Source of the DNA: Burkholderiaceae bacterium
Lineage (GTDB): Bacteria > Pseudomonadota > Gammaproteobacteria > Burkholderiales > Burkholderiaceae
Length of the DNA stretch: 64,000 bases
Direction: 5' to 3'
NCBI GenBank assembly: GCA_947457875.1
Contig: CANGWV010000001.1
Coordinates: 1,770 to 65,769 of the forward strand
Part shown: piece after piece, positions 44,691 through 64,000 of the stretch
How the letters are laid out: the number at the start of each line of letters is the position of its first letter
Numbering within the stretch: position 1 is the stretch's first letter
The notes under the pieces: generated by a model
Seen by the model: the letters and a program-made list of their open reading frames with translations, nothing else
Told to the model about the DNA's origin: nothing
The model's database searches: none
Made by a program: the position numbers and the translations under genes

Positions 44691-44725
44691 AGCCAATAGC
44701 TGGCACAGTTAATTAAGAGAATACG

Positions 44726-45823: not shown

Positions 45824-45825
45824 CA

Positions 45826-47342: not shown

Positions 47343-48050
47343 CTAATCGATTTTTTGATGGGGCAGGGCATCAAGGCCATCCACTGCCAACTTTTTGAGC
47401 GCTTCACTTTGTTGGATGTGCAATTGGTGACCCGTTTTAGTCAGCACCCCATTTTTAATCAGTAACTGCAGTGCGCGTGAGACGGTTTCACGGCTGGTGT
47501 TGACCATGGAGGCAATGTCTTGTTGGCGCGGCACATGGTGAATTTGGCGCTGCGCAGAAGCGTTGTTCACCAATAAATTGAGCTGCACAAAAATACGATG
47601 AAATGCATTGGGGAGGCTGAGCATCGAGCGCTCTTTGAGTGAATGGCGTACCGATTGTGCAAGCAGTTGCATGACCCGATTGGCAATCAAGGGCTGCGTT
47701 GTTAATAAGCCCTTTGCAAATGCCATCGGCACTAAAAGCAACTGCGAATCTTCTAGCGTCCGCAAGGAGTTGGTGACGGGCTGTCCATCGGCCAAGGTCA
47801 GGCAACCGATAATGTCGCCCGGCACGAGGATGGTGATGCCAATAATGCGGCCATCGTCCGCAATTTCAGTCGACTGAATACGTCCGGAGACAACAAAGGT
47901 TAAAAAACTCACCAATGAGCCCCTGGCTAAAATCTCTTGCCCCTGTTTTGCAGCCCCTAATTGGGTGTTTTGGGCAATTGTTTGCAAATCGGGCTCGGGC
48001 AGCCCCTGAAAGAAGGGAAATTGCTTAATTAGGTCAAGTGCAACGGGCAT
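47343..48050 (-). CDS. CRP/FNR-family transcriptional regulator
   Basis: cNMP-binding-like N-domain; HTH RQQDIASMVNTSRETVSR matches the CRP recognition helix (RE..R). Confidence 0.92.
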   Translation of the reverse strand: MPVALDLIKQFPFFQGLPEPDLQTIAQNTQLGAAKQGQEILARGSLVSFLTFVVSGRIQSTEIADDGRIIGITILVPGDIIGCLTLADGQPVTNSLRTLEDSQLLLVPMAFAKGLLTTQPLIANRVMQLLAQSVRHSLKERSMLSLPNAFHRIFVQLNLLVNNASAQRQIHHVPRQQDIASMVNTSRETVSRALQLLIKNGVLTKTGHQLHIQQSEALKKLAVDGLDALPHQKID

Positions 48051-48395: not shown

Positions 48396-48442
48396 AAATG
48401 TGATTCATATCACATATGACTAGAGTCTAAGTTAGTTATCAT
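48396..48442 (+). promoter_or_regulatory. CRP box plus -10 element: candidate class II CRP-activated promoter of the S-layer gene
   Basis: AAATGTGA-ttcata-TCACATAT (48396-48417); TATCAT at 48437-48442 places the box centre near -42; RBS AGGAG at 48491-48495. Confidence 0.75.
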
Positions 48443-48501
48443 TCATCGTCAATATTGGTTTTACTTGCCAATTTGCATCTATTAATTACTAGGAGAATTA
48501 C

Positions 48502-51500
48502 ATGGCCGTTCCAATTACCACAACAATGCAGCAACAGATTGCACAAAATTACATCGCTATTTTGGGTCGTAACCCAGATGCGGCTGGTTTCGCTTTTTGG
48601 CTTGATGTTTATGCCAATGCCAACGGCACTCCAGCAGCCCTAACAGCCATTACCAACGGTTTTGGTAACTCAGCTGAATTTAGAGGTACATACGGTAGCT
48701 TGAGCACAGAAGCCGCTATCGGATTGATGTATCAAAACGTACTCTTGCGTGCTGCTGATGCACCAGGTTTAGCATATTGGACTGGTATTGCAAATGGCTT
48801 GATCGCTAGCGGTCAGACAATTTCGAACGCGTATGCCCAAACTGGCGCGCAAATGATTTACACCGCTGCAAGCAACAATACAACCGATTCCGCCGGTATC
48901 ATCGCACGTACTAACGCAGCCATTACATCTGGTACAACCCCACCAACCACAACTTATACACTCACAACTGGTGTAGATACAGAAACAGCTTCTTTATTTA
49001 CTGGATTAGTAAATGGTGCTGCTGGAACGAACACATTTACCAACCTGGATACCTTGACTGGCAGAAACGCAAATGCGTCAACAAACACATTGCGTTTGGT
49101 TGACCTAGACAATGCCGCTCTTGCTACTGCTGCAATTACTCCAGTTGGTGCAACACTGACAAACATCGGCAATTTAGTCATTGCCGCTGCAAATGACGTG
49201 GGTACATTAGCCACAAATGCTGCACCATTCACTGGCATAACAAATGTTACTTTGACAGCTGCTGGTTCATTAACCGCATTTACTGCTGGTGCTGGACAGG
49301 CTGTGACTGTTACCAATACAGGCGCAACTGGGGCTCAATCAGTCCAAGGTGGTACTTCTCAGACTGTTACTATTACTGGCGTAGCGATTGCTGCCGCTGG
49401 AACAGGTGTAGCTGTTAACGTTGGTACAGTAACAGCTGGAACAGGCGCTGTTAACTTAACTGTTGCAAATACATCTGCAGCAGTAGCTGCTGAAGTAACA
49501 ACAGGTGGTGCCATTGCTGTAACTGGCGGTAGCACTGTGGTTGTAAACCAAACTGTTGCACAAACAGCTGCCGCAGCCGCAACCAACTTAGCTGCTGGAG
49601 CAACTGCAGTTAATACACAAGGCGCAGTTACAGTTACTGGTACCGCAACTACTACCGCAGTGACAATTAACCAAACTGCAGCAGTTGCAGCAGTTAACGT
49701 TGCCAATTCAGGCGCAGCAGGCGTTGTAGCTGGTGATACCAACGTTCTTGACGTGAACCGCGCTTCTGCAACTGCAGCTGGAACAATTACTACCGTTACA
49801 TTAAATAATTCAGGCGCTGCTGTAGTGAACTCTGGTGCGCTGACAACCCTAAACCTGGCCGGCACATTGACTACTGTCAATGCTGGAACATTGGGTGCGC
49901 TGACAACAGCAGCTAATACAGCGTTGGCAGTTAATTTGACTGGCGCGGTTTCTACAGGTGCTTTGACCATTGATACCGACATTAGAACCATTAACATCAC
50001 TGGTAGCGGCACAGCCAATACCCTTGCGGATTTAGTGAATGCAAGCGCTACTGCAGTTAACATCGGTGGTGCAGTTGGCGTAACGATTACTGCTAACACA
50101 TTGGCAGCAGCAGCTGTAATCACCTCTACAAATACTGCTGGCACAACATTGACTCAAGCCCTTGCAGTTGGTCAACAGTTTGTTGGTGGTGATGGTGCTG
50201 ACACAATTTCGATTGGTCAAACAACCACAGCCATTAATATGGGCGGCGGTAATGACGTCGTTACCATTTCCAATGAGACTTTGGGCGTAAACGGTACATT
50301 GAACGGCGGTAGTGGTACAAACACCATTGTTGCTAATACAAACGGCTCAACCCTTTCTGGTAATGGCAACATTACCAACTTCACCACATTGCGCGTTGCT
50401 GGCGGCGCTGCTGCTGGTGCGCATAATGCAACAGGCTTTACAGCCCTTGAAATTGGTGCATTGAACGGTGCCATGAGCTTTACGAACGTGGCTGCTGGCA
50501 CGGGATTAACTTATCGTGCTGCAACTGGTCAAACATCCGCATATATCCTTGCTAACTCCGGCGGTACTACCGATGTTTTAAACGTTACACTGTCTAGCGC
50601 CGCAACAATGGATGTCAATGCCTTAACTGCTGCTGGTATTGAAACAGTAAACATTACCAATACAGACACATTAACAACAGCTGCTTCAGGAATTAACACC
50701 AACGTAATGACCTTAACGGCCGCTGCTGCAACTACCGTAGTTGTTACAGGTAATGCTGGTTTGAACTTGACAGCAACTGGCTCTACTGCAGTAACCAGAT
50801 TTGATGCTTCTGGAATCACTGGTTTAGCTGCAAATGCTGCTGCTTTAGCGGTTACTTACGCCTCTTTAAACGCAACCCGTACAGCTGCTGTAGCGATTAC
50901 CGGTGGTGATGGTAACGATACATTAAGCGGAAATGCTGCTATAGATACAATTACTGGTGGCGCCGGCAATGACATCATTCAAGGTGGCACAGGTGCTGAC
51001 GTAATTGATGGTGGTACAGGTACCAATACATTTACAGCAGTTGCTAGCGGTACAGCTTCAGTTGAAGGTGCTGGTACAGGTACTACTGATGGTATGGCAA
51101 TCAACTTGGGTACCACAACAGTTACTGCAGCAACTATTAATGCAGCGTTTGGCGGCACTATTGGTTTGTCTTCAGCATCTGCAGGCTTAGCAGCAGGCAC
51201 AGCTCAATACGTATTTGCCACGCAAAGCAACTTGTTTGCAACTACAACTGATACTTTAGCGAACATCCAAAACGTAAATGGCACTGCAAGCAATGACTAC
51301 ATTGTTGGTAGCACAGCTAATAACGTAATTGCTGCTCTAAACGGCATTGACCAAATTATTCTAGGTACTGCAACTGTAGGCGGTTCAGATACAATCCGAA
51401 TTGGTTCTGGCGCAGCAGCAAATAGAGATGTAATCAGTGGTTTTACAGCTGGTGCTGTAACCACCACAGGTCAAGCTGACGTTATCAATATTAATACTGC

Positions 51501-51867
51501 ATTGGCTACATTGACGGGCACAAACAACTTTACTACTGCAGCTGCGATTCAAGAGATTGCAGCCGGTGGTGGTATAACCATTAACGCAGCTGCAGACGTT
51601 GTGCGTGTTGCTACGGGTGTAGGTACAGTTGCAGCTACTGATCTTGATGGAACAGCCTTGGTTGCTCTTACCGGCGCCATTACCGCTAATGCTAACAACT
51701 CCATACTTTTATTTGCAGTTGGAATCACTGGTGGTGGTACGGCGATTTACTACGCGGATTCTGGCGCTAATACTGGCATTGTTGCCGCTGAGATTGCTTT
51801 GATCGGCGTATTAAGTGATGTAACAGTTGGAAATCTCGTATTCTCTAACTTCAGCAACGTTGCCTAA
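48502..51867 (+). CDS. S-layer protein, RsaA/SapA-like (expressed copy): DUF4214-like N-terminal anchor domain, Ala/Thr/Gly beta-rich body, RTX Ca-binding repeats, T1SS C-terminal signal
   Basis: YIAILGRNPDAAGFAFW and MYQNVLLRAADAPGLAYW motifs; GGDGNDTL/GGAGNDII/GGTGADVI nonamers; no Sec signal peptide; adjacent T1SS; strong RBS. Confidence 0.88.
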   Translation: MAVPITTTMQQQIAQNYIAILGRNPDAAGFAFWLDVYANANGTPAALTAITNGFGNSAEFRGTYGSLSTEAAIGLMYQNVLLRAADAPGLAYWTGIANGLIASGQTISNAYAQTGAQMIYTAASNNTTDSAGIIARTNAAITSGTTPPTTTYTLTTGVDTETASLFTGLVNGAAGTNTFTNLDTLTGRNANASTNTLRLVDLDNAALATAAITPVGATLTNIGNLVIAAANDVGTLATNAAPFTGITNVTLTAAGSLTAFTAGAGQAVTVTNTGATGAQSVQGGTSQTVTITGVAIAAAGTGVAVNVGTVTAGTGAVNLTVANTSAAVAAEVTTGGAIAVTGGSTVVVNQTVAQTAAAAATNLAAGATAVNTQGAVTVTGTATTTAVTINQTAAVAAVNVANSGAAGVVAGDTNVLDVNRASATAAGTITTVTLNNSGAAVVNSGALTTLNLAGTLTTVNAGTLGALTTAANTALAVNLTGAVSTGALTIDTDIRTINITGSGTANTLADLVNASATAVNIGGAVGVTITANTLAAAAVITSTNTAGTTLTQALAVGQQFVGGDGADTISIGQTTTAINMGGGNDVVTISNETLGVNGTLNGGSGTNTIVANTNGSTLSGNGNITNFTTLRVAGGAAAGAHNATGFTALEIGALNGAMSFTNVAAGTGLTYRAATGQTSAYILANSGGTTDVLNVTLSSAATMDVNALTAAGIETVNITNTDTLTTAASGINTNVMTLTAAAATTVVVTGNAGLNLTATGSTAVTRFDASGITGLAANAAALAVTYASLNATRTAAVAITGGDGNDTLSGNAAIDTITGGAGNDIIQGGTGADVIDGGTGTNTFTAVASGTASVEGAGTGTTDGMAINLGTTTVTAATINAAFGGTIGLSSASAGLAAGTAQYVFATQSNLFATTTDTLANIQNVNGTASNDYIVGSTANNVIAALNGIDQIILGTATVGGSDTIRIGSGAAANRDVISGFTAGAVTTTGQADVININTALATLTGTNNFTTAAAIQEIAAGGGITINAAADVVRVATGVGTVAATDLDGTALVALTGAITANANNSILLFAVGITGGGTAIYYADSGANTGIVAAEIALIGVLSDVTVGNLVFSNFSNVA
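48951..48973 (+). repeat. Candidate recombination site 1, at the constant/variable junction of the expressed S-layer gene
   Basis: AACTTATA-CACTCAC-AACTGGTG; codons TYT-L-TTG; core identical to sites 2 and 3 and in the same reading frame. Confidence 0.7.
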
Positions 51868-51885
51868 TAGTTGTTTGATTTAGGT

Positions 51886-51985
51886 CCCCACCGCAGTATC
51901 GGTGGGGTCATGTAAAGCAGTAAATCCTAGTAATTAATAGAGTAATACGTTTAACCCCTATCAGCAGTGGTAGGGGTTTTTCTTT
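51886..51985 (+). terminator. 3' element of the S-layer gene: hairpin, conserved AT-rich linker, intrinsic terminator
   Basis: CCCCACCG-cagtat-CGGTGGGG (51886-51907); AACCCCTATCA-gcag-TGGTAGGGGTT followed by TTTCTTT (51953-51985). Confidence 0.85.
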
Positions 51986-52013
51986 GTTAGCTGCAATCTG
52001 TACAATTACCAGG

Positions 52014-52616
52014 ATGAAAACCCTCCTACATGTTGGCTGTGGTGCGAGCAGGATCGGACAAACTACCGCTGGATTTAATGATGGATCCTGGTCAGAAATT
52101 CGTATTGATATCAATGGCTTAAATAGTCCAGACATTATTGGCAACATGACCGACATGTCGGCAGTCCATTCAGGGTCAGTGGATGCTATCTTTTCTAGTC
52201 ATAACATTGAGCACTTATACTCCCACGAAGTACAGGTAGCATTAGCTGAATTTCATCGGGTATTAAATTCGCAAGGATTTTGCGTGATTACCTGCCCCGA
52301 TATCCAATCGGTATGCGCTTTAGTGGCACAAGACAAGTTACTGGATCCGGCCTATATTTCACCAGCTGGCCCCATAGCGCCCATTGATATCCTTTTTGGG
52401 CATCGGCCAAGCATGGCTCAAGGCAATCTGTTTATGGCCCATCGCACTGGTTTTACCGAAAAAACGTTAATAGCCACCCTCCAAGAGGTTGGATTTATGA
52501 CGGTAGCTACCATGAAAAGACCGCAACACTTTGATCTTTGGGCGCTAGGGACTAAATCAGCCGTCTCAGAAGCCAAAATTCAAGAGTTAGCAAAGGCGCA
52601 CTTTCCTAAAGGGTAG
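52014..52616 (+). CDS. Class I SAM-dependent methyltransferase
   Basis: MKTLLHVGCG, DAIFSSHNIEH, EFHRVL..G, AHRTGFT. Confidence 0.85.
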   Translation: MKTLLHVGCGASRIGQTTAGFNDGSWSEIRIDINGLNSPDIIGNMTDMSAVHSGSVDAIFSSHNIEHLYSHEVQVALAEFHRVLNSQGFCVITCPDIQSVCALVAQDKLLDPAYISPAGPIAPIDILFGHRPSMAQGNLFMAHRTGFTEKTLIATLQEVGFMTVATMKRPQHFDLWALGTKSAVSEAKIQELAKAHFPKG

Positions 52617-52734
52617 ACAGCTAACGAGTCAATTTAGGCCAATTTGGTAAAAACTAGGGTGGATAAAGCGGGGTGGGCACCTCAAAACCCACTGATTTAT
52701 AATCCATTCTTTATCCAATAGACGAGATACAGCT

Positions 52735-52938
52735 ATGACCACAGTAACAGTCGATAACAAAGAATATGAATTTGAGTCCCTCTCTGAGGAGACAAGAGCG
52801 CAATTTGTAAGCCTGCAATTTGCTGACCAAGAAATTGCCCAGTTGCAAGCCCGTTTAGCGGCAATGCAAACGGCGCGTAATGCCTATGCCCAAGCTTTAG
52901 GCAATTTATTGGCTGAAAAAGACGCTGTTGTTCAGTAA
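52735..52938 (+). CDS. Small DUF6447-like protein, copy A
   Basis: MTTVTVDNKEYEFESLSEETRAQFVSLQFADQEIAQLQARLAAMQTARNAY; paralog at 58250-58459. Confidence 0.8.
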   Translation: MTTVTVDNKEYEFESLSEETRAQFVSLQFADQEIAQLQARLAAMQTARNAYAQALGNLLAEKDAVVQ

Positions 52939-52949
52939 TTAAAGGCGCT

Positions 52950-54527
52950 CTAAGATGCAGAGTGCTGGGTCTGATTAAGCAACTCAATCAGAGTTGCTTC
53001 CAAAGATTTTGTAAATTGAGCAGATTGCATTAAGGGGGAGGTCAGCATCTCCTCCCTTAGGGATTGCCGGTACTGAATAAGCATTTCTGGGCTGGCGGCA
53101 AGCTCTATAGCCTTTTGGACATACCCTTTTTCATCTTGGGTTGCGAGCTCTGGATGGCCGACGCTGGATAAAAAGGCATAGGTTTGGCGCGAAACGACCC
53201 TCGCTTGCGGCCAAGTAATCACTGGGACCCCCATATAGAGTGCCTCACAGCTAGTAACTCCGCCAGAAAATGGAAATGGGTCTAGTGCAATATCAATTTC
53301 TTTGTACTGCGCCAGCATATCAATATGAAAAGAGGGCCCTCGTAGCTCAATGCGTGAGGGATCAACCCCAAACGCTTCAAATTGATTAAGAACAGACTGC
53401 GTAAATTTCGTATCATTGAATGTACGCCATTTGAGGATCAATCTAGATCTAGGCACGCTAAGCAAAATCTGGGACCAAAGCTTATAAACGAGGTGGTTGT
53501 ACTTTAAGGTGTTGTTAAAGCTGCCAAAAGTAATATATCCCTTTTGTATGGAGGGTGGATCAGTAATGAATGGCGCAGGATCAATCGCAGGAAAATAGCA
53601 CCACCTTCCAATTGGAAGGGAAATAATTGGCTCTATAAATTGCGTATCTATCTGATCATAGCTATGCCAGCGATCCAAAAGAACGGCATCGATAGTATCT
53701 AAACCAGTAGTGGCGTAATAGCCTAGCCAGCTCACCTGAACTGGCGCTGGCCGATAAGCAAATACTGCCAGTCTTGATCCGCCAGTATGGCCCGATAGAT
53801 CAATTAGGATATCGATTTGGTCAGAGCGGATACGTGAGGCTAACTCAGCGTCCGATAAATTTTCAACTCTGAAAAAATGAGAATGCTTTGCAATGGCTTC
53901 CGTAATCGCATCTTGAGTTTGGCCACTGCTGTAGCAAAAAACAGTAAATTGATCTGTGTTGTGCTTAGCAATAATATTTCGAATTAAGATCCCAACGGTA
54001 TGCTGACAAAAATCAGCCGATACATAGCCAATTCTTATTTTTTGCGAGCTAAAGTCTTTAATCTCAGGTCTTGGGTGTGGACCGCCTGCATCATCGATTG
54101 CACGCTTTGCCCATTGCTTTGCGAGAACTAACCGCTCTTCATTACTCGAACAGGGGAGGTACTCGGAAAAGTAAATCAGGTTACGTAATACACGGGGCTC
54201 ATTCGGAAAGCGTTTGAGTAAATCCTCAAAGATTACTTGGCACTGGCCAGTTTGACCTAATTGCAATAGGGTATTAGCAAGTGCCAGTAAGAATTCTGGA
54301 TCAGCTGGAAAAAGCGTTAATCCATTACTAAGGCAGTCTCTGGCATTGCTTAAAAAACCGTATCCAAGAAAAAGTGAGCTTACTTTGAGAATAAGCTCCT
54401 TATCGGACGAATGCTGTTTTAGAAGCTTATTACAAATGGCAATGCATTGCTCGTTTTGACCAAAATGAGCATGATTTTGAGCGGCCGAAAGTGATGTTTT
54501 CCAATTAGGCATCTTAATCAAAAGCAT
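52950..54527 (-). CDS. TPR + GT41 (O-GlcNAc transferase/SPINDLY-like) protein glycosyltransferase
   Basis: N-terminal TPR-like helices; IRIGYVSADFCQHTVG, DILIDLSGHT, RPAPVQVSWLGY, TFGSFNN, DIALDPFPFSGGVTSCEALYMGVPV. Confidence 0.9.
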   Translation of the reverse strand: MLLIKMPNWKTSLSAAQNHAHFGQNEQCIAICNKLLKQHSSDKELILKVSSLFLGYGFLSNARDCLSNGLTLFPADPEFLLALANTLLQLGQTGQCQVIFEDLLKRFPNEPRVLRNLIYFSEYLPCSSNEERLVLAKQWAKRAIDDAGGPHPRPEIKDFSSQKIRIGYVSADFCQHTVGILIRNIIAKHNTDQFTVFCYSSGQTQDAITEAIAKHSHFFRVENLSDAELASRIRSDQIDILIDLSGHTGGSRLAVFAYRPAPVQVSWLGYYATTGLDTIDAVLLDRWHSYDQIDTQFIEPIISLPIGRWCYFPAIDPAPFITDPPSIQKGYITFGSFNNTLKYNHLVYKLWSQILLSVPRSRLILKWRTFNDTKFTQSVLNQFEAFGVDPSRIELRGPSFHIDMLAQYKEIDIALDPFPFSGGVTSCEALYMGVPVITWPQARVVSRQTYAFLSSVGHPELATQDEKGYVQKAIELAASPEMLIQYRQSLREEMLTSPLMQSAQFTKSLEATLIELLNQTQHSAS

Positions 54528-54609
54528 AAATTCTAGGCATAAAACCAGTTTAACTCACCCTTATTGGGTTGTCGGGGCTTGACTCTCTAGCAATACCATC
54601 GTTAAGGTA

Positions 54610-54643
54610 AATTAGTCCACTCACTACTAGTACCGACATCCAA
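54610..54643 (+). repeat. Candidate recombination site 2, head of silent cassette V2
   Basis: AATTAGTC-CACTCAC-TACTAGTACCGACATCCAA; 54618-54643 matches the reverse complement of 62856-62881 at 25/26. Confidence 0.8.
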
Positions 54644-57613
54644 TCAGCAGGTATTTTCTACGGTACAGTGAACGCTGCTTCAGGAAATAGCTTTACGCCT
54701 GGCGATCAACTCACCGGCCTAGGCTCTAATGCTTCATTAGTTTTAGCTGACGCAGGAAATGCAGCTTTAACTACTGCCTTAATTAGCCCAGGTGGTGCGA
54801 CCTTAACTAATGTAAAGAGCTTAGTAATTAATGGTAGTAACGTAGGCAATAATGTAATTAGTACTGCTGGTAACTTATTTAGTAGCCTTACAAGCGTAAC
54901 CATTAACGAAGGTGGTCAAGTTGCTTTAACAGGATCATCAACCCAAGCTCTGACATTGAATCTCAGCGCAACTGCTGCTTTGGCTAGCTCAGTAAATGGT
55001 GGTACAGCAGTAACAGTAACGTCAGTTGATGCCACTACTGGCACTTTAAATATTGGACAAACTACCGCTGGAACTGGGGCTGCTTCTGCTACCGTTACTG
55101 GTCTAGCTTATACAGCTGCTGATGCTGACAACACAATGGGCGTTATTAACGTACTCAGTGGTACAAGCGCAACTGTAACAGCCAATGCATACGCAAACAC
55201 TACTGCAGCTCTAACTGATGGAACAAACGTAACTCGTACTATGGGCGATGTTGCTATTGACGGTACCTCGACAACTGCTTCTGCAAGCGTAACGCAAACT
55301 AGGGGCGTTACTGTGCAAAACTTTGCGGCTGGAACTGCAACGGCATACGTAGTTAACGGTGTTGCTGGTGTTACAAACGGCGCAGTTACAGTACGTGATG
55401 CAACTGCAATTGCTGGTACAGCAGCTGCTAATGCTGGTACATTGGCAACGGTTACTTTGGCAAATTATGGAAACTCAACCATCAGCTCAAATGCTTTAAC
55501 TACAGTTAACCTTTCAGGTACTGGCGGCACATTGGGCATTACAACGGGTTTAACCACGCCAACTAACCGTACCTTAGCCTTAAATTTAAATGCAACAACC
55601 AACCAGGATCAGGTTGGTGCAACATACCTTACCGGCAACACTATCACCGATTCAACCGCTGCATCTGGTCTAGGTTATACAACTATTAACATTACAAATA
55701 CCGGTTCTTCTCGGTTAACAGGTATTGCTGCAGTTGATACAACTGCGGTCACTTTGGCAGGTTCTGGCACATTAACTGTCGGCACACTTAACACAATGAC
55801 CACGCTCTCAACAGTCACAGTTACAGGCTCTGCTGGTTTAAGTTCAACTGGTGCCTTTGCAGCAACTGTTACTTCGATCAATGCTAGTGGCACATCAGGC
55901 AATATGACATTGAATTTGGCTGGTTTAGAAACTGCAACTAACTTTACTGGATACTCTGGTGGTTCTGGTGTTGATACAATTACTATTGCAACAGCACCAA
56001 CAAAAGCAATTAATGGTGGAGCTGGTTCTGCTGACGTAATTGTGAATAATGCGAATACTGATATTGTTGTGGGAAATGCAAATATCACAGGATTTGAGAT
56101 TTTGCGTGCTGGCGCTGCAGCAACAGGTACATTAAGCGCTAATGGCTTCACAGGTTTGCAAATGGGTGCTGTAGCTGGTGCGATAACGTTTAATAACATT
56201 GCAGCAGGAACCGCTTTGACCTACCTAGCTAGCCCAACTGCAAATACAACGTATACGTTAACAAACTCGGCTGGTACATCTGACTCTGTAACAATTAATC
56301 TAACTACTGGATCAACATCATCTAACGGACTAATTGCTGCCGGTCAAATTACCACAACTGGCGTTGAAACTATCAACATTGTCATGACTGATACGCCAAC
56401 GTCAGCAACTACAGGCTTACAACAAGGTCGTAATGCTGCGCTAGTCAATACTATGACTTTAGCTGACGCAACTGCAACATCGATTACTGTAACTGGTAAT
56501 GCAGGTTTGACATTAACTAATACGGCCCTAGATAAGGTAACATCGTTCAATGCTAGTGGAGTGGTAGCTGGTACAGCCTTAGCAGCTGGAGCTGTTACGT
56601 ATACATCTGCAACAACAAAAGCTAACTCCGCGACAACTACTATAGCTGGTGGTGCTGGTGCTGACGTGTTAACTGGTGGCGCTACAGCTGATACGATTAC
56701 TGGTGCTGCTGGTAACGACACACTAGATGGTGGATTGGGTGCGGATAGTATCGACGGCGGTACTGGAACAAATACTGCATCTTATGCATCCATTACAACT
56801 GGTGCTGAAGGTGAAGGCGTTGGCTCAGGATCCATTTCAGGTGTTGCAATTAACTTAGGCACTACTGCCGTGACTGCTGCAGCTATTAATACTGCAATGG
56901 GTGGAACAATTGGTTTATCCGGAAGTCTAACAAGTGTAGCCTCTGGAACTGCTGCTTATATTTTCCCAACTCAAAACGTTGCATTTAGTACAGTTGTAGA
57001 TACTTTGACTAACATTCAAAATATCACCGGTACCGCTGGTACTGACTATATTGTTGGTTCAAACGGAGTGGCTAACAGAATTACTGCAGCTAACGGTATT
57101 GATACAGTTATTCTGACGGAGACTACTCCAACAGCAGATGTGCTCAATTACTTATCTGGCGCTGCAGCCAATCGTGATATTGTTACCGGTTTTGTTGCCG
57201 GCGCAACAGGTGGTGATGTTATCAATATTAATACAGCATTGCATACGTTAACAGGAGGCAATAACTTTACGAGTGCTGCTGCAATACAAACTTCCGGTGC
57301 CGCTGGTAATAAAACTATGCTAGCAGCTTCAGAAGTACTGTATGTCTCAGCCGCCACCATTGCAAACGCTACCGATGCTAACTCACTAAACGGTACTAAC
57401 GTTTTATTAGCAATGGGCGGTGACTTGACAGGAGCAATTGTCGGTCAAAATAATATCTTACTGACAGTTGGTATTGCTGGTGGTGGAACTGCCGTCTACT
57501 CCGCAACCTCTGCTGACAATGCAATTATTGCTGCTGAAATTACACTGATAGCAGTATTAAACGGCGTTGCAGTTGCAGATCTCGTATTCTCTAACTTCAG
57601 TAACGTAGCTTAA
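54620..57613 (+). CDS. Silent (headless) S-layer variable cassette V2, 997 codons from the LTT junction
   Basis: In-frame TAA at 54608-54610, then ISP-LTTSTDIQSAGIFYGTVNAASGNSFTPGDQLTG, which aligns with LTTGVDTETASLFTGLVNGAAGTNTFTNLDTLTG of the expressed gene; no anchor domain and no RBS/ATG; same LVFSNFSNVA C-terminus. Confidence 0.85.
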   Translation, partial: LTTSTDIQSAGIFYGTVNAASGNSFTPGDQLTGLGSNASLVLADAGNAALTTALISPGGATLTNVKSLVINGSNVGNNVISTAGNLFSSLTSVTINEGGQVALTGSSTQALTLNLSATAALASSVNGGTAVTVTSVDATTGTLNIGQTTAGTGAASATVTGLAYTAADADNTMGVINVLSGTSATVTANAYANTTAALTDGTNVTRTMGDVAIDGTSTTASASVTQTRGVTVQNFAAGTATAYVVNGVAGVTNGAVTVRDATAIAGTAAANAGTLATVTLANYGNSTISSNALTTVNLSGTGGTLGITTGLTTPTNRTLALNLNATTNQDQVGATYLTGNTITDSTAASGLGYTTINITNTGSSRLTGIAAVDTTAVTLAGSGTLTVGTLNTMTTLSTVTVTGSAGLSSTGAFAATVTSINASGTSGNMTLNLAGLETATNFTGYSGGSGVDTITIATAPTKAINGGAGSADVIVNNANTDIVVGNANITGFEILRAGAAATGTLSANGFTGLQMGAVAGAITFNNIAAGTALTYLASPTANTTYTLTNSAGTSDSVTINLTTGSTSSNGLIAAGQITTTGVETINIVMTDTPTSATTGLQQGRNAALVNTMTLADATATSITVTGNAGLTLTNTALDKVTSFNASGVVAGTALAAGAVTYTSATTKANSATTTIAGGAGADVLTGGATADTITGAAGNDTLDGGLGADSIDGGTGTNTASYASITTGAEGEGVGSGSISGVAINLGTTAVTAAAINTAMGGTIGLSGSLTSVASGTAAYIFPTQNVAFSTVVDTLTNIQNITGTAGTDYIVGSNGVANRITAANGIDTVILTETTPTADVLNYLSGAAANRDIVTGFVAGATGGDVININTALHTLTGGNNFTSAAAIQTSGAAGNKTMLAASEVLYVSAATIANATDANSLNGTNVLLAMGGDLTGAIVGQNNILLTVGIAGGGTAVYSATSADNAIIAAEITLIAVLNGVAVADLVFSNFSNVA

Positions 57614-57614
57614 C

Positions 57615-57718
57615 CTCCCTCAAAAAGAGAAATCCACAGATCACCGTGGGTTGCAGTAAACAAAGTAATTAATAAGTCTCAAGAAGAACCCCTATCCATA
57701 AGGTAGGGGTTTTTCTTT
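57615..57718 (+). terminator. 3' element of cassette V2 (hairpin, linker, intrinsic terminator)
   Basis: AATCCAC..GTGGGTT hairpin; AACCCCTATC..GGTAGGGGTT followed by TTTCTTT at 57687-57718. Confidence 0.8.
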
Positions 57719-57762
57719 GACTCTTATGGAGTTTTTAACGAAAAACTTGAACTAAATGGGAC

Positions 57763-58110
57763 TTAGCTTGATTGCTGGATGATCCGCTCGTCATACATCA
57801 CCTTGCTTAACTCCTTAAAGAGATTAATGGCGTTGTCGGTTGGTATTAGGAATTGCACTCGCTTATCTTCTTCACTGATTTTTCGCATCACAAACTCTTT
57901 CAAAACTAAGTGAGTAATGTAAGTTTGAATAGTAGGACCGGAGCCTAAATCCTTATTAGCCAAAAGGTCTGATACTCTCATTGTCTTATGGGTAAGGTAG
58001 GCCAGAGTGATAAGCCTGAGAATGTAGCTCTCCTTATGCTGGATGCGGTTGTTCTTATAAATTTCTTCCTCTTTTAAAGAGTAAATTAGATACTGAACAA
58101 TGGAATCCAT
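57763..58110 (-). CDS. MarR-like winged-helix protein
   Basis: MRVSDLL...SGPTIQTYITHLVLKEFV..ISEEDKRVQFLIPT (wing DxR motif). Confidence 0.7.
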   Translation of the reverse strand: MDSIVQYLIYSLKEEEIYKNNRIQHKESYILRLITLAYLTHKTMRVSDLLANKDLGSGPTIQTYITHLVLKEFVMRKISEEDKRVQFLIPTDNAINLFKELSKVMYDERIIQQSS

Positions 58111-58144
58111 ACGACCATCTTACTCTTACGACTATGGAATAAAC

Positions 58145-58246
58145 AAAGAAAAACCCCGCCGAAGTGGGGTTAGTCGTATTACTAGTACAAGGTATTACTG
58201 CAACCCACGGTGATCTGTGGGTTTCTCTTTTGAGGGAGATTAGGCA
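58145..58246 (-). terminator. Fourth copy of the S-layer 3' element, downstream of DUF6447 copy B
   Basis: 58195-58238 is a near-perfect inverted copy of 57615-57659; terminator AACCCCAC-ttcg-GCGGGGTTTTTCTTT on the minus strand. Confidence 0.75.
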
Positions 58247-58249
58247 GAA

Positions 58250-58459
58250 TTAATGCTTATCTTTGCTACCTTCTTTTGGCAAAGCGGCGTTTAGGGCATT
58301 GGAATAGCCAATACGGGCTGTTTGGTATACGGCTACTTCAGCTTCAAGCTGAGCCAGTTTTTGATCTACAAACTGCAAGCTTGTAAATTGGGCTTTGGCA
58401 TCGTCAGATAAGCTATCTAGGGCATATTCAATATTATCGATGGTTACTGTAGACATCAT
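58250..58459 (-). CDS. Small DUF6447-like protein, copy B
   Basis: MSTVTIDNIEYALDSLSDDAKAQFTSLQFVDQKLAQLEAEVAVYQTARIGY; AAGGA RBS. Confidence 0.8.
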   Translation of the reverse strand: MMSTVTIDNIEYALDSLSDDAKAQFTSLQFVDQKLAQLEAEVAVYQTARIGYSNALNAALPKEGSKDKH

Positions 58460-58488
58460 TATTTCCTTTAAGGTGATTCATATTCTGT

Positions 58489-58594
58489 AAAACAAAACCC
58501 CAACTTTTTGAGCTGGGGTTTTATCGAAGACTACTTATTAATGACTAGGATTTACTACTTAATACTTTTGCTGCCCCACCGGTGATTTGGTGGA
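58489..58594 (-). terminator. 3' element of cassette V3
   Basis: Minus strand: CTCCACC..GGTGGGG hairpin, AGTAAATCCTAGTCATTAATA linker, AAAACCCCAGCT..AGTTGGGGTTTTGTTTT terminator. Confidence 0.8.
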
Positions 58595-58604
58595 GTATAA
58601 AAGT

Positions 58605-61600
58605 TTAACCAATTGTGAAAATATCGGTATTTGCGACAAATCCTGCTAATCCAGGAAGCGTGATGTCATTGGTTCCGAAGACTGCTGCAGTAGCGTCAGC
58701 TACACCAGCGAAAATGGCTACTGAGGTAAAGTCGGCTGCAGCTAATGCACCTGCACCTTTCGAAACTAACCAAGCATAGGAGTTTGCGTTACCAGTTCCA
58801 GTTCCTGAAGCAACGAAGAGTACTCGGTCACCAGCTACAAAGTCTGTTTGGGTTGTGAGCGCACGGTTAAATGCAACCAACGCACCTGCTGCAGTATCCA
58901 TATCAGCGTTACCAGCAATAGCATCCGAAGCAATTACTACCACAGTATTTGCGCCAATTGTTGCTCCGGCAGTAACTGCCTGCAATTTATTTGCATCGCC
59001 ATTTACCAGCAATCCGGTTGCAAAGTTTATACCCATCGTATTTGTTGCATTTTTTCCAGTATAGGTAGTGTAGGTATCTCCACCTTCAGCAACCATTCCT
59101 GCTACTGTTGTCGAAAGGTACTTAGATTGATTAATTCCAGCAGTGTCAGTAATGGTATCGGTACCATTTCCACCGGTATAAACGTCCGCACCAGCGGCAC
59201 CGGCTAAAACGTCATTACCAGCAAGGCCATTGAGCACATCAGCGCCTGACCCAGTAGTAATAGTGTCAACTCCAGCGCCACCAGTAAAGGTCACAATACC
59301 TGACCCAGTATGGGTGTAAGTATGATCACCAGTACCAAGTAGATTTACGGTAGTGTTTTGAGTTCCGGCGTTTAAAGTCATCGTAATGATTGCACTTGAA
59401 CCTACTGCATTAGTAATGGTCATTGCGCCAACAGTATTGGAAAGAGCAATACTCTGTGTGCCATTACCCGTTACATCTAGAGTAGCTGCAGCAGCTGTTG
59501 TCATTGACAATGTGGCTGTTGTAAAGGTCTGACCTGTCGTGTTGTTTAATGTAAATGCAGTAGCAGTACTTGTACGCGCCTCACTTACGATACCAAGCAG
59601 TGTGCTAGAAGCCACCATCGAATCCGCAGCACTTGCTACCGTTGCTGTATCACCGTTGTAGTAGTTGTAGTTCGTAGCGCCAACTGTAAAGCTATACACT
59701 GTATTCGCTCCAAGGTTGGCTTGTGCAAACGCCACACCTGCCGCTACCGATGCTGTTGCTGCTGCCTCTCGGACAACGCTCGTTACAAAGTTACCAGCCT
59801 GAACAAAGGATAATGTATCGCCACCCGCTTGACCATCATTGGTTGTAATAGTTGTAAACGCTGTAGCTGAGTTTAAGCCCGTGTTCGCAGTATTACGGTA
59901 TGTATGTACACCAGTTGTATGGGTCGCATCCACAATCGTATTTACACCAGAGCCAAAGTTAATCGTAGCAGTGTTGCTTGTTACGTTAGCACCATAGCTT
60001 AAGGTTAATGAATTATTACCATTACCTAAACTAAACACGTCAGCTGTTACGTTGGCTCCGCGGTTAATAACAATTGTATTATTCGCTGAATTTGCTGAGA
60101 AGTTAGCAGTCAGTACATTGTTTAATGCATTGGAGATAGTAGCGTTAATGACACCAGTTCCCGTACCAGTAATGGTTGCTGCTGAATCTGCTGTCATTGC
60201 AGTTACGGTCAATACGCCTGTACCAGTATTTGCAAGGTTAACGGTAGTAGCTGTAGAAGTACCAGCAGTATGTGTAAGGCCGCCTGAACCTGAACTGGTC
60301 AGCGTCAATGCATTAGCACCAGCAGTTAATGTGGCAGATGTCAATGTCAATAAACCAGAACCGGAGTTAGTGATTGACTGAACACCGTTGGTACCAGCTA
60401 CCAAGCTAGTGATTGTTACTGCACCTGCAGAGCTGCTTGTTAACGCAAAGCCAGCAGCACGAGAATCGATAAGGGTATGCGTTTGCGCCCCAGAACCAGC
60501 AATTGTTACTGTTGTGAGTGCTGTAGCGCCACCGCCAGTACCTAGGCCCGAATTTGTCAAGCGGCCGGTACCGGTGTTGTTGTAGGTTGCAGTAACTACA
60601 GCAACATCCTGGCTGGCGTTAACGGTCATGGCAGCGCCCGTATTGTTGACTACCAATGCGGTTGAATTGGCGCGGGTTAAGTTAATAGTTGCTGCACCTG
60701 CAGAGCTATTGGCAATCGTAATGGTGCCGGCTAAGCTGGTATTAGAAGAAACGGTCATCGCACCAGTACCTGTGCCGCTGACATTGACTGAAGCCAGTGA
60801 AGTATTTGCACCACCGTTTGAGCCGGCAAAGCTATTACCCGTTGCTGCTGTTGAGTTGTTTACTACGCTCAAAGAAGCAGCGGTTGCTGTTGCAGCATTA
60901 GCTAGCACTGTTACTGCAGAGCCATTTAGTGTATATGTTGCCAATGTTGCATCGGTAATGGCCATGGTACTAACAGCGCCGCTGGTATTGGTGTTGTTGA
61001 TGGTTAATGCTGTTACCAAGTTGGTCCATGTGCCAATGTTCAGAGCTGCATTGCCAGAAATAGCCAATGTGCTAATACCCGTACCTGCACCAGTTAAACC
61101 AGTAGAAAGATTGGTAATTGTATTGGCATAACCCAGTGCTGTAGAGGCATTATTGGTAATGTTAAGTGTACCGATTGAACCGCTAGCCATTCCACGTGAG
61201 TCACTAACGATCAAGGTACCGATGGTGTTACCCAAGTTCGTTGTCGCTGTTGTGCCGATGGTGATATTCGCTGTGCTGGTTGCGCCTGCTGTACCGGCAT
61301 AGCCCATGGTAATGCTGGTTGCTGTGCCGTTAATTGCTAAGGTAGTTGCTGCAGCAGCATTCGATACAGCAACCGTGCCTGTACCTGTCAAGGCACGAAC
61401 ACCAGTAAAGCCAGCCATGCCAGTACCGGATAGATCAAAAGTACCGGCTGAGTTTGCACCAAAGCCGAGTGTTTCAAAGCCAGTCACTGCGCCACCAGCT
61501 GCCAGGGAAACTACGCCCGTGCCGTTAAAGTTGGCAACGATGGTGTCTGCTGTATTGGTACCGCCAGCGAGTGTGCCGATGGTTTGGCCAGACAATGTAA

Positions 61601-62879
61601 CGGTTTGTAAACCAGAAGCAGCCGAACCTGCTAACGAAGCTGTGCTACCCAAGTTAATGGTCAGCGCACCAGAAGAGCTATGGGTTACGGTGGTTACGGT
61701 TGTTGGTGCTGTTGTTGTCGAGAGGCCAGCAGCGCCTGTCACGGCAATCGTTGTCAAACCAGCCATACCAGTGAAATCGGCTGTTAATACTGAAGAGCCA
61801 GAAAGGTTAAATGTACGAGCAGCAGTACCGTTAAATGTAATGAACGATGCTGTAGCGCCGGTAGAAGCATTAATTGTTGCGTACTGATTGCTTGCATCGG
61901 TAAAGGTTACAGCAGTAGCTCCTGCAGCAGCTCCGCTAGCATTAATCGCTAAGGCTAAAGTGGTGTTGGTTGCTGCTGTTGAGCCGCCTGTCGTGACTTG
62001 TACTGTACCGCCATTAACAACGCCGGTAAATGAAACGGAATTCAGAGCTGGTGAACTAATGGTTACGTTGCCGCTGTTAGTTGTTGTAACAGAAGTAATG
62101 GTTCCAGCTAATGTGCCGCTTCCAGCGTTTAAGTCATTAACGACTACCGCGCCAGTAACCACGCCAGATACTGCTGCTGCTGCAGTAGCACGGGCTGTTT
62201 GGGTGGCTGTTACTGCCGTTGTCAATGCGCCGCCGGTAAATGTAATAACGCCACCAGTAATGGTGTTGTTCACTGCGCCTGCTAAGTTAGCGATTACTGT
62301 ATTTACTGTACCGCCGTTAACGTTGATTGCAGCGGCTGTAGCCGTTGTCGCAGTAGCAGCTACTGTCTCAGCAACGTTGATCGTGCCAGTAGTGCGAGTT
62401 GCGCCAGCTTGTGTACCCGCATTAATCACCGAAGCGCCAGTCACACCAGTGGCGTTAATAGCAATATTTTGTCCGCCAGTTACGGTCAGGTTATTAGCGG
62501 CAGTTAAGGCATTATTTATGGTTGCATTTTGAGCTTGACTTGCTGCAATGCTAGACGCGTTTAATGCACCGCCACCAGGTACTTGGCCACCGGAAGAATT
62601 TAAAGTGACATTGCTTACACCAGATAGCACAGAGCCTGTAGTGTCTAAAATCACACCTTGATTGCTATTAACAACCAGGTTCTTGATATTGGTAAGGGTA
62701 GCGCCAGCAGGGGCGGCATAGGTTAGGGTTGCGTTAGCAACGGTATCTGCATTCGTAAGGCTCAATGTTGCATTGGAACCTGTGCCGGTCAAGCGATCGC
62801 CTGAGGTGAATGTTGCACCTGTGCCAATTAAACCTTCGTAGTTATTAAAGTTACTTTGGACGTCGGTACTAGTAGTGAG
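58605..62879 (-). CDS. Silent (headless) S-layer variable cassette V3, 1424 codons from the LTT junction, inverted
   Basis: Frame reads TST-LTTSTDVQSNFNNYEGLIGTGATFTSGDRLTG; no ATG/GTG/TTG upstream of internal TTG 62792; no anchor domain; RTX nonamers GGAGVDTI/GSGADVL/GLAGNDVL/GGNGTDTI. Confidence 0.85.
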   Translation of the reverse strand, partial: LTTSTDVQSNFNNYEGLIGTGATFTSGDRLTGTGSNATLSLTNADTVANATLTYAAPAGATLTNIKNLVVNSNQGVILDTTGSVLSGVSNVTLNSSGGQVPGGGALNASSIAASQAQNATINNALTAANNLTVTGGQNIAINATGVTGASVINAGTQAGATRTTGTINVAETVAATATTATAAAINVNGGTVNTVIANLAGAVNNTITGGVITFTGGALTTAVTATQTARATAAAAVSGVVTGAVVVNDLNAGSGTLAGTITSVTTTNSGNVTISSPALNSVSFTGVVNGGTVQVTTGGSTAATNTTLALAINASGAAAGATAVTFTDASNQYATINASTGATASFITFNGTAARTFNLSGSSVLTADFTGMAGLTTIAVTGAAGLSTTTAPTTVTTVTHSSSGALTINLGSTASLAGSAASGLQTVTLSGQTIGTLAGGTNTADTIVANFNGTGVVSLAAGGAVTGFETLGFGANSAGTFDLSGTGMAGFTGVRALTGTGTVAVSNAAAATTLAINGTATSITMGYAGTAGATSTANITIGTTATTNLGNTIGTLIVSDSRGMASGSIGTLNITNNASTALGYANTITNLSTGLTGAGTGISTLAISGNAALNIGTWTNLVTALTINNTNTSGAVSTMAITDATLATYTLNGSAVTVLANAATATAASLSVVNNSTAATGNSFAGSNGGANTSLASVNVSGTGTGAMTVSSNTSLAGTITIANSSAGAATINLTRANSTALVVNNTGAAMTVNASQDVAVVTATYNNTGTGRLTNSGLGTGGGATALTTVTIAGSGAQTHTLIDSRAAGFALTSSSAGAVTITSLVAGTNGVQSITNSGSGLLTLTSATLTAGANALTLTSSGSGGLTHTAGTSTATTVNLANTGTGVLTVTAMTADSAATITGTGTGVINATISNALNNVLTANFSANSANNTIVINRGANVTADVFSLGNGNNSLTLSYGANVTSNTATINFGSGVNTIVDATHTTGVHTYRNTANTGLNSATAFTTITTNDGQAGGDTLSFVQAGNFVTSVVREAAATASVAAGVAFAQANLGANTVYSFTVGATNYNYYNGDTATVASAADSMVASSTLLGIVSEARTSTATAFTLNNTTGQTFTTATLSMTTAAAATLDVTGNGTQSIALSNTVGAMTITNAVGSSAIITMTLNAGTQNTTVNLLGTGDHTYTHTGSGIVTFTGGAGVDTITTGSGADVLNGLAGNDVLAGAAGADVYTGGNGTDTITDTAGINQSKYLSTTVAGMVAEGGDTYTTYTGKNATNTMGINFATGLLVNGDANKLQAVTAGATIGANTVVVIASDAIAGNADMDTAAGALVAFNRALTTQTDFVAGDRVLFVASGTGTGNANSYAWLVSKGAGALAAADFTSVAIFAGVADATAAVFGTNDITLPGLAGFVANTDIFTIG

Positions 62880-62889
62880 TGTACTTGTT
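62856..62889 (-). repeat. Candidate recombination site 3, head of V3, inverted relative to sites 1 and 2
   Basis: Minus strand AACAAGTA-CACTCAC-TACTAGTACCGACGTCCAA; AGTA/TACT inverted arms flank the core; shares TACACTCAC with site 1. Confidence 0.8.
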
Positions 62890-63031
62890 AAGAAGGCATA
62901 GCAGGTATATAAAATATACGTTAAGATGTTATCTTCAAGATTTAGTTTGCAATATTTTTACTAGACAATCTAAATCATTTTTAATAAATTATTTATGTAA
63001 CTAATTTATTAAAAAATTTATAAATTTTAAT

Positions 63032-63053
63032 AAACCCGTTCCGACGGGTTTTT
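63032..63053. terminator. Hairpin with T-tracts on both strands between V3 and the recombinase (possible bidirectional terminator)
   Basis: AAACCCGT-tccg-ACGGGTTT-TT within a very AT-rich spacer. Confidence 0.6.
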
Positions 63054-63105
63054 GCATTTTGAGGATCAGAAAACATTTTTTACTAATTTTCTATAGTAAT
63101 TATTT

Positions 63106-64000
63106 ATGCAAATGTATTTAGATGACCAATTACTTTCTACCTTAAAGGTTCCTAGTGGTAAGACTCGTCTTACGGTTAGTGATAAAGCTTGTCCAGGCCT
63201 TAGCATTGAAATTCGCAATCCAAAAGGAGCGTCTTGGAGAATTCGGTATAGCTATGAAAAAATTCAACACTGCCTAACGATTGGAAAAGCAAGTGACTTG
63301 AGTTTAGATGAGGCTCGTCAGATCGGCTATGCAGTCAAAAAATTATTAACTGCTAAAGAGGACCCATCGCAGATATTGTTGCAGACAAGTGGGCATAGTT
63401 GTCCGACCTTTTCACTCTTTATTGAAAAGAACTATCTTCCACATATTCGCTCTTATAAACGATGCGTAAGTGCGGATATGACCTTACTTGATAATCATTT
63501 AATTCCGGCTTTTGGTCATTTAAAGCTCAATAAAATTGGGCGCTATCAAGTGGTTGAGTTTTTACAGGCTAAAGTGAGGGCAGGCTACAAGCCGGGCTAC
63601 TGCAATCGTTTCTTGGTTCTTTTAAGCTTTTGCTTTAATTTAGCCCTCAAGTGGGAGATACCTGGTGTTAAGCAAAATCCAGTTAAAGGGGTGGATTTAC
63701 TTAAAAATCTAAATAAAACGGAGCGCTATCTACAGGCCACCGAAATTCAAAGCCTATTAAATGCCTTAGAGGACAGTCCGAACCCTTTACTTAAATACTT
63801 TGTACCCCTTGCTTTGTTAACCGGGGCACGCAAACGGGAATTGCTGGATGCCAGGTGGTCTGATATTAATTTTGAGTCTAAAGTGTGGCGAATTCCGATG
63901 ACTAAATCAGGTAGACCATTAAACGTTCCCTTAACACCCCAGGCCGTTTGCATATTACTTAGCCTAAAGGAAAAGTTACCTTTGTTATTGGAAAGCGTCC
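63106..64000 (+). CDS. Tyrosine recombinase/integrase (partial; runs off the window; missing from the ORF track)
   Basis: Hand translation gives 298 open codons: MQMYLDDQLL..SDKACPGLSIEI..SWRIRY..LTIG..LSLDEAR (arm-binding-like N-domain) ..NPV..ERYL..LALLTGARKRELLDARWSDI..WRIPMTKSGRPLNVPL (catalytic Arg and Lys). Confidence 0.93.
   Translation, partial: MQMYLDDQLLSTLKVPSGKTRLTVSDKACPGLSIEIRNPKGASWRIRYSYEKIQHCLTIGKASDLSLDEARQIGYAVKKLLTAKEDPSQILLQTSGHSCPTFSLFIEKNYLPHIRSYKRCVSADMTLLDNHLIPAFGHLKLNKIGRYQVVEFLQAKVRAGYKPGYCNRFLVLLSFCFNLALKWEIPGVKQNPVKGVDLLKNLNKTERYLQATEIQSLLNALEDSPNPLLKYFVPLALLTGARKRELLDARWSDINFESKVWRIPMTKSGRPLNVPLTPQAVCILLSLKEKLPLLLESV

Follow-up and report, generated by a model that had tools for sequence, protein, structure and literature searches.

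Why does a bacterial chromosome carry one complete gene for a surface-layer (S-layer) protein and, on the same stretch, two long S-layer reading frames with neither a start codon nor an N-terminal domain, the outermost of which adjoins a tyrosine recombinase? This question is raised by the last quarter (positions 48,502 to 64,000) of the window, a 64,000-nucleotide stretch from a Burkholderiaceae bacterium (GCA_947457875.1, contig CANGWV010000001.1; G000:C1:1770-65769, where G000 is its own assembly of 1,577,015 bases and other G and L numbers label further genomes or records and loci). A sequence-only reading of this DNA had proposed that inversion joins one constant N-terminus to alternative C-terminal cassettes. 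Our results make it probable that the locus is a chromosomal inversion switch for S-layer bodies, stocked by mobile elements that re-tail the S-layer gene.

The reading frames proved to be as the sequence-only reading had described them. A start with a ribosome-binding site (AGGAG, 48491-48495) and an ATG occurs only in the complete RsaA-like gene (48502-51867, + strand; 1121 amino acids), which consists of a constant N-terminal domain (N; DUF4214, 48502-48958) and the currently fused cassette V1 (48961-51867, +; 968 amino acids). DUF4214 is confined to this gene, and RTX repeats occur in all three bodies, i.e., also in the headless cassettes V2 (54620-57613, +; 997 codons) and V3 (58605-62879, -; 1424 codons). 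V2 is RsaA-like and 45% identical to V1 from the first residue after the junction onward; V3, a distant RsaA homologue, is remote from both. An in-frame stop lies 4 codons (V2) and 27 codons (V3) upstream of the junction site with no ATG, GTG or TTG in between, and the first internal GTG or TTG codons (54668 in V2 and 62792 in V3) have no Shine-Dalgarno-like sequence as judged by eye. Hairpins are visible after all three bodies, in line with the terminators claimed for each, of which the automated scan listed only that of V1. The promoter claimed for the gene at 48502 was not confirmed: a sigma-70 scan (13 sites found vs. 27.9 expected by chance) gave none on the + strand upstream of it.

All three bodies begin at the heptamer CACTCAC in one codon phase. 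Site 1 (48959-48965, +) is the expression site, attB- or attL-like, at the boundary of the helical and beta-helical parts. Site 2 (54618-54624, +) is a direct repeat of site 1, with TC before the core as in element-side (attR-type) sites and no adjoining integrase. Site 3 (62875-62881, -), on the integrase side, is inverted relative to the other two and reads AGTA-CACTCAC-TACT, i.e., it has perfect inverted half-sites around an asymmetric 7-mer, as expected of tyrosine recombinase sites. Plain CACTCAC is frequent (6 copies in the window, 124 in the genome); the extended pattern T[AC]CACTCAC[AT]AC occurs three times in the 1,577,015 bases, each time at a V1, V2 or V3 junction. Inversion between sites 1 and 3, carried out in silico, spans 13,923 bp and yields an open N+V3 frame of 1577 amino acids, and inversion between sites 2 and 3 (ca. 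8.3 kb) followed by the outer inversion yields N+V2 (1150 amino acids), both as the sequence-only reading had predicted from the geometry. Excision between sites 1 and 2, as a 5659-bp circle, gives N+V2 in one step. As in a functional shufflon, several site copies surround alternative coding segments, at least two of them in inverted orientation, and the computed products are in-frame fusions to the constant 5' part.

The junction sequence was compared across the window, further genomes at the genus level and metagenome loci, 22 junctions in all, of which 20 were obtained by a pattern scan beside S-layer frames picked by composition and two by eye at the remaining frames. The core is CACTCAC in 21 junctions and AACTCAC in one. 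Only 2 of the 81 internal [TP]LT tripeptides of the same bodies are spelled with the core letters, and CTC accounts for 77 of 1230 (6.3%) of their other leucine codons. Since the junction codons are fixed whereas the internal TLT and PLT codons are not, the site is constrained at the DNA level. The left flanks fall into an N-side class (..TTATA), a resident-integrase class (AAGTA) and an element-side class (..GTC), and the right side reads tACtggT. The N-region gave 32 matches, and all 26 that were aligned are conserved over the N-domain through TYTLT and divergent thereafter. Searches with the site alone were less useful: a 15-letter pattern hit 58 loci in IMG/VR, none with an S-layer cassette or a close integrase, and these were set aside as chance matches, while a 16-letter pattern with two mismatches performed no better than a reversed control genome-wide, so that matches with zero or one mismatch alone are informative.

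V1 aligns with the RsaA chain of Caulobacter (5N97, 778 of 1026 residues; E 4e-87) from chain residue 2, and this alignment starts exactly at the junction motif; V2 and V3 match the same chain at E 1e-47 and 2.5e-13. In an AlphaFold model of residues 1-420 (pLDDT 87), eight helices occupy residues 7-145 and strands begin at residue 151; the fold that the model matches best is that of full-length RsaA (E 1.1e-05). The alignment and the model together place the site at the border of a helical N-domain and a lattice-forming body. The protein has the hallmarks of an RsaA-type RTX S-layer protein, namely homology to the crystallisation domain, RTX repeats, a helical N-domain and a linked type I exporter. 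The N-domain model is only a weak fold match of the lipopolysaccharide-binding domain of RsaA (6T72; E 0.35). By analogy with RsaA (PMC3034196), the N-domain may be the cell-surface anchor. Three further DUF4214-like N-domain matches (35-38%) lie on G000:C94 and C13, where the site is absent, and G220 has an N-like gene with neither site nor integrase.

If the bodies are exchanged by inversion, related genomes should show the alternative arrangement, and the comparison suggested by the sequence-only reading indeed revealed it. Four contig-level runs were compared with the locus, which no single contig spans completely. In the lake-metagenome run X4, a 1073-nt contig consists of a 21-letter flank, the core and a stretch of V1 (2 differences over 1052 nt). 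The flank agrees with that of site 3 at 18 of 21 letters (4-10 of 21 for the other 21 flanks), and in a seeded scan of G000 the site-3 flank was the sole match of at least 16 letters. Such a junction of flank, core and V1 is what the in-silico inversion between sites 1 and 3 produces, and the contig supports that inversion. On a second X4 contig (10,179 nt), N is continued across the core by an unrelated body, and the methyltransferase follows. In L029 the block of methyltransferase, DUF6447 and GT41 genes that follows V1 in the window is inverted (83.8% over 2505 nt), together with a decayed MarR copy, and lies behind a headless integrase-side body; in G083 it occurs in the order of the window (81.9% over 6769 nt). 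L030 has a V2-like start at its integrase-side site (57% over 104 amino acids). All six orthologous integrase loci with upstream DNA (L005 in G155, L028-L031 and L040) carry, at an almost constant distance, both a site and a different headless body; three more (L032, L033 and L042) start inside the gene. Body types that are headless in one locus are fused to N in others, at 57-60% identity over 800-1000 amino acids. One contig of run X3 begins exactly at 54618, and among X4 contigs five cover position 62897 vs. one at 63126; these observations would agree with branching at the sites and are too weak to count.

The inverted geometry recurs in two other genomes. In G155 the N gene lies on contig C11, and contig C3 carries four headless bodies (961, 599, 1160 and 1081 amino acids) that share one strand. 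The two contigs terminate in the same insertion sequence, of which there are ca. 11 copies, and their join is supported by a 3-bp duplication and by a cassette 3' untranslated region (UTR) that continues across the insertion sequence; C31 shows the same three letters but not the continuing UTR. With this join all four bodies are inverted relative to N, and the window-type integrase is outermost. In G612, from another family of the same order, an inverted headless body beside an integrase lies 20 kb from N+body; an 18-letter stretch with CACTCAC at its end is common to its two sites, and a related methyltransferase-domain gene follows each body. G484 and G322 were excluded from this count. On G322:C13 (9370-24528) a related integrase has complete S-layer genes on both sides, and on G484:C1 (3.62-3.67 Mb) one lies 40 kb from an outward-facing complete S-layer gene; these are possibly other geometries in which the head or the promoter moves.

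The tyrosine recombinase, which the sequence-only reading had placed ca. 220 bp outside the last site, begins 225 bp outside site 3. Its open reading frame (ORF) occupies 63106-64000 (+) and continues beyond the window to G000:C1:66074, with which it is completed to 400 amino acids. The catalytic residues (R242, K267, H338, R341, H364 and Y373) are intact, and residues 13-89 form an arm-binding domain (PF13356; E 7.7e-09). The Rci invertase of shufflons is described without such a domain (PMC8138268). Accordingly, of the comparison with Rci made by the sequence-only reading the adjacent tyrosine recombinase stands, whereas the enzyme itself is an arm-binding, phage-type integrase, not an Rci-type invertase. 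The AT-rich spacer between site 3 and the gene (62882-63105), a candidate arm-site and promoter region, is nearly fixed in length and conserved in seven loci (82% mean column identity). Downstream of window-type integrase genes there is a conserved small ORF, and replication genes are absent, so that we term these integrases resident. The nearest relative in species genomes is L005 (72%). About 87 database proteins are 51-97% identical to the integrase, and after a gap the remainder follows at 42-48%. None of a first draw of 60 related genomes contained an orthologue, and a phylum draw added one genome (G701). Among 50,697 GenBank phage records neither the integrase (E 1e-40) nor V1 had a match. 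One integrase sub-clade (L235 and L236) lies near a gene resembling a threonyl-tRNA synthetase by eye and has no S-layer neighbour.

Where do the cassettes come from? The sequence-only reading had missed their apparent supply by satellites and prophages that integrate at the site. In G155 three of the bodies adjoin sister integrases (44-46% identical), each heading a unit of 9-13 kb with primase/helicase-type or other replication genes and toxin-antitoxin pairs. The satellite-like loci L034, L039 and G547 show a direct-repeat order of N, site, body, cargo, replication genes, integrase, site and headless body. In an integration of this kind the right junction consists of the element arm, the core and the host 3' part, and hence the N-fused body is that of the element and the headless one the displaced host part. 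A search of IMG/VR with an integrase alignment returned 79 loci; among loci with at least 700 bases upstream, a divergent S-layer-like frame headed by CTCAC occurs at 16 of 23 close viral integrases (two pairs of which are identical) vs. none of 37 distant ones, and at L133 and L136 a site is visible by eye below the thresholds of the script. In the records G273 and G275 a capsid gene lies midway. Their far end bears an S-layer gene, which in G273 is complete and includes DUF4214 and in G275 is truncated by the start of the record, and a headless body lies past the integrase; both junctions read (C/T)GCTCAC. G265 and G266 combine a prophage and a second element in tandem; a DUF4214 search of both gave no match. 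G268 (L125, L215) has an integrase, a site, a 1371-residue headless body, a methyltransferase and glycosyltransferases, followed by a repressor and phage genes, and is either a phage genome of attP type or a prophage with a body at a resident integrase site. None of the records of the relatives is circular. At the level of the order, 11 of 400 genomes contain 12 matching loci: four with a headless divergent S-layer frame, one with a headless flagellin, one with a complete S-layer gene, two without upstream DNA and four without any such neighbour.

This also bears on the window itself. The sequence-only reading had recognised the three sites and overlooked that sites 1 and 2 are direct repeats. 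The segment that they bound has the direct-repeat att cores of an integrated element, 5659 bp apart, and only V1, a methyltransferase, DUF6447 and GT41 in between, without integrase or replication genes, both of which are present inside the repeats in L034, L039, G547 and the units of G155. Given the direct orientation of sites 1 and 2, the element-side left flank of site 2 and the restriction of the intervening DNA to V1 and its cargo, the V1 block is likely a decayed element that has lost its integrase. Similar cargo recurs behind cassettes of bacteria and prophages (the window, L125, L135, L203, L034 and L040), namely methyltransferases, GT41 and GT4 glycosyltransferases and TPR proteins. 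This suggests matched S-layer modification kits, and the enzymes may modify the S-layer body with which they travel.

The same logic may extend to another surface protein. At L238 (G586:C48, 3237-4715 and 9147-10631) a complete and a headless flagellin gene, 53% identical and with an identical stretch from the INSAKDD codons, flank a sister integrase; the headless copy starts at Pfam position 33, and a rolling-circle-type replication gene also lies between the two frames. In a viral record (L130, 930-4454) a headless flagellin frame of 1174 amino acids, from Pfam position 36 onward, is divergent from a related integrase. Judged from their sequences, these two relatives would re-tail flagellin. 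We lean, by a narrow measure, to a broader proposal: that an arm-binding integrase family targets the anchor/lattice junction in the gene for the outermost protein of the host, that temperate phages and satellites of Burkholderiales use it to swap the entire exposed S-layer body, together with matching modification enzymes, when they integrate, that the displaced bodies are retained as spares, that some hosts have domesticated the integrase into a reversible switch and that sister enzymes re-tail flagellin.

For the locus itself, satellites or prophages would integrate at the anchor/body junction and bring their own body, which would re-tail the S-layer gene and leave the displaced body open as a spare beside the integrase. 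The resident integrase at the inverted outer site would then flip the 13.9 kb between sites 1 and 3 (N+V3, 1577 amino acids) or, alternatively, the 8.3 kb between sites 2 and 3, so that the constant anchor would be joined to a different lattice-forming body. It is presumably this integrase that carries out the inversion, and presumably within a clone. It may descend from an element integrase. In quick trees (98 rows, and 39 after near-duplicates and distant rows were dropped) the window-type integrases fall into a single clade (SH-aLRT 98-100%), which neighbours the G612 group and stands apart from the satellite and prophage clades. The G612 group is not purely resident, since the integrase of L126 directly precedes phage genes. 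Several observations weigh against this scenario. The trees are midpoint-rooted with long stems and do not fix which clades are sisters or in which direction descent ran. All flipped states come from different strains rather than from one clone, and the three differences in the 21-letter X4 flank mark X4 as a relative in which V1 could be an independent capture. None of the 26 N-fused homologues is an orthologue of V2 or V3 (best V2 match 34%), which is where the C-terminal switch proposed by the sequence-only reading falls short; the flipped relatives and the same geometry in G155 and G612 speak for it. The left half-sites of sites 1 and 3 are unlike each other, no arm-type sites were identified, and the junction sequences of G484 do not share the core. 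In a survey of 240 other genomes of the genus a family integrase was found in three, the N-domain in three and the orthologue in only one. G083 (93% complete) has N and, on separate contigs, two headless bodies and no orthologue of the window integrase; its outermost site (G083:C6, 14046) lies just downstream of groEL. On the side of the elements, a second S-layer gene occurs in two of the eight viral records read to the far end, the other six, with a headless body, ending inside phage genes, and the four order-level loci without an S-layer neighbour also count here.

A rival reading is a static pile-up, in which the att sites are real and successive elements have re-tailed the gene or settled beside the resident integrase; strains would then differ through independent integrations and homologous exchange without reversible inversion, the resident integrase capturing, excising or being idle. 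G155 does stack three satellite-like elements at such sites, each with its own integrase, L034, L039, G547, G273 and G275 are simple direct-repeat integrations, and the bodies of G083 stand without a resident integrase. Moreover, arm-binding integrases are normally directional, as stated in PMC8138268. However, integration at a single site cannot alone yield an inverted outer site, whole blocks of cassette and cargo occur in both orientations, and a near-identical V1 is at the expression site in the window and at the integrase-side site in X4. The silent bodies have, furthermore, remained open over 1000-1400 codons, and integrase and spacer are conserved without replication genes. We consider a static pile-up unlikely, yet the most serious of the alternatives. 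Could RecA-dependent recombination or gene conversion use V2 and V3 instead, with the integrase as a bystander? The sap genes of Campylobacter fetus switch by RecA-dependent recombination, sites 2 and 3 agree at 28 of 30 letters, and in this genus homologous recombination often occurs near the cell-surface island (PMC5644125). Sites 1 and 3 have only 9 contiguous letters in common, though, the bodies lack the N-domain and hence any long 5' homology, and the pattern of a site plus a headless body tracks the integrase family, all of which makes homologous switching very improbable. Equally improbable is independent translation of V2 and V3 as secreted proteins without an anchor, or their being young pseudogenes, with CACTCAC merely spelling conserved (T/P)LT codons. 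The motif is conserved at the protein level in RsaA, and a small number of headless bodies at other loci could use a start codon of their own at the junction (2 of 17 at the genus level, i.e., L029 with a TTG and a good ribosome-binding site and the inner G083 body, whose ATG precedes the site by two codons, and 4 of 16 in viral records), another point against the switch. Such starts are absent from V2 and V3, the junction codons are fixed where the internal ones are free, and the same body types occur fused to N. A switch stocked by mobile elements thus remains the reading that we prefer.

A type I secretion system (PrtD-type ABC, HlyD and TolC; 42870-47196, +) likely exports the S-layer protein. 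A gene for a Crp/Fnr-family regulator (47343-48050, -), divergent from the S-layer gene, occupies the same position in G083, G155 and L034. The TGTGA-N6-TCACA box between them (48399-48414, +), upstream of the S-layer start and a perfect match to the CRP-type consensus, has an exact copy in G083 and differs by one change each in G155 and L034. Every complete cassette ends in a 3' UTR with two hairpins and a motif like AATCCTAGTAA between them, even where the coding sequences are unrelated. In the window these UTRs lie at 51868-51985 (+, after V1; hairpin, AATCCTAGTAA motif and terminator), 57614-57717 and 58505-58604; they are also present in 14 relatives and possibly act as an mRNA-stability or regulatory element. 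The cargo behind V1 (51984-54527) comprises the methyltransferase (51984-52616, +), DUF6447 (52735-52938, +) and TPR-GT41 glycosyltransferase (52950-54527, -) genes. Between V2 and V3 lie a small MarR/winged-helix regulator (57763-58110, -), an orphan cassette 3' UTR (58150-58249, -), which has a 37-nt copy of that of V2 and is likely the scar of a further, deleted body, and a second DUF6447 gene (58250-58459, -), downstream of V3.

Elements of this system are known from elsewhere. The R64/IncI shufflon likewise joins a constant N-terminus of PilV to alternative C-terminal segments by means of Rci and sfx sites with a 7-bp asymmetric core, a conserved right arm and a variable left arm, the tyrosine recombinase lying beside the outermost site (10.1101/2024.10.25.620183 and PMC8138268). 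In contrast, the locus described here concerns a chromosomal S-layer gene with bodies of 3-4 kb and cargo genes, an arm-binding recombinase, direct-repeat sites, element-borne sister integrases and cassettes apparently imported by mobile elements. The multiple-inversion loci vsa of Mycoplasma pulmonis and omp1 of Dichelobacter nodosus are named in 10.1101/2024.10.25.620183. Both vary a major surface protein behind one expressed 5' end by site-specific inversion. The protein class and the recombinase differ from those found here. We know of no link of either system to integrating phages or satellites that donate cassettes. With slpA/slpB of Lactobacillus acidophilus (PMC3666127) and C. fetus sap (named in 10.1101/2024.10.25.620183) our locus shares a single expression site, silent copies and a coat-changing inversion. 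Here, however, the crossover is a 7-bp core inside the coding sequence at a domain boundary, and the N-domain is missing from the silent copies; silent complete genes with a long shared 5' region, as in sap, were not found. In both slpA/slpB and sap a silent gene is moved behind the promoter via longer 5' homology, RecA-dependently in C. fetus. Elements that carry a replacement gene fragment are known for tRNA genes, for icd (e14 and phage 21) and for prfC (SXT). Of the islands reported in PMC12424338, 43.4% are located in coding sequences. The elements described here resemble such elements in the attB inside a gene, the replacement piece on the element, the displaced host piece by the integrase and the tandem accretion; they differ in that ca. 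85% of the protein is replaced by a highly divergent version, so that the coat is changed rather than the gene restored, and in that the displaced bodies stay intact as spares. Caulobacter RsaA (PDB 5N97, 6Z7P and 6T72; PMC3034196) has the same build of a helical N-domain, an RTX beta-helix body and PrtD/HlyD/TolC neighbours, with an N-domain of ca. 250 residues vs. ca. 150 here and weakly similar. No switch at rsaA surfaced in our literature searches. These full-text searches, whose hits were judged by title and the beginning of the abstract, with subscription papers outside their scope, likewise returned neither site-specific C-terminal switching of an RTX S-layer protein nor elements that re-tail S-layer or flagellin genes; the sequence-only reading, too, knew of no site-specific C-terminal shufflon for a type I-secreted S-layer in this group.

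The cell-surface islands of freshwater bacteria have so far been explained by homologous replacement (PMC5644125). If the proposed switch is real, it would provide a concrete mechanism for fast surface turnover in these abundant bacteria, and the benefit may be escape from phages or grazers or, for a phage, the removal of its own receptor. The explanation of S-layer diversity by phage pressure becomes directly testable in a cultured relative (L005), and the loci offer natural, interchangeable RsaA-type lattice domains together with a new family of integrases and att sites. For the Burkholderiales and their viruses the finding would mean a new form of lysogenic conversion, in which integration itself rebuilds a major surface protein. 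It would, moreover, link lysogenic conversion to the origin of an inversion switch, a phase-variation repertoire being written by incoming viruses.

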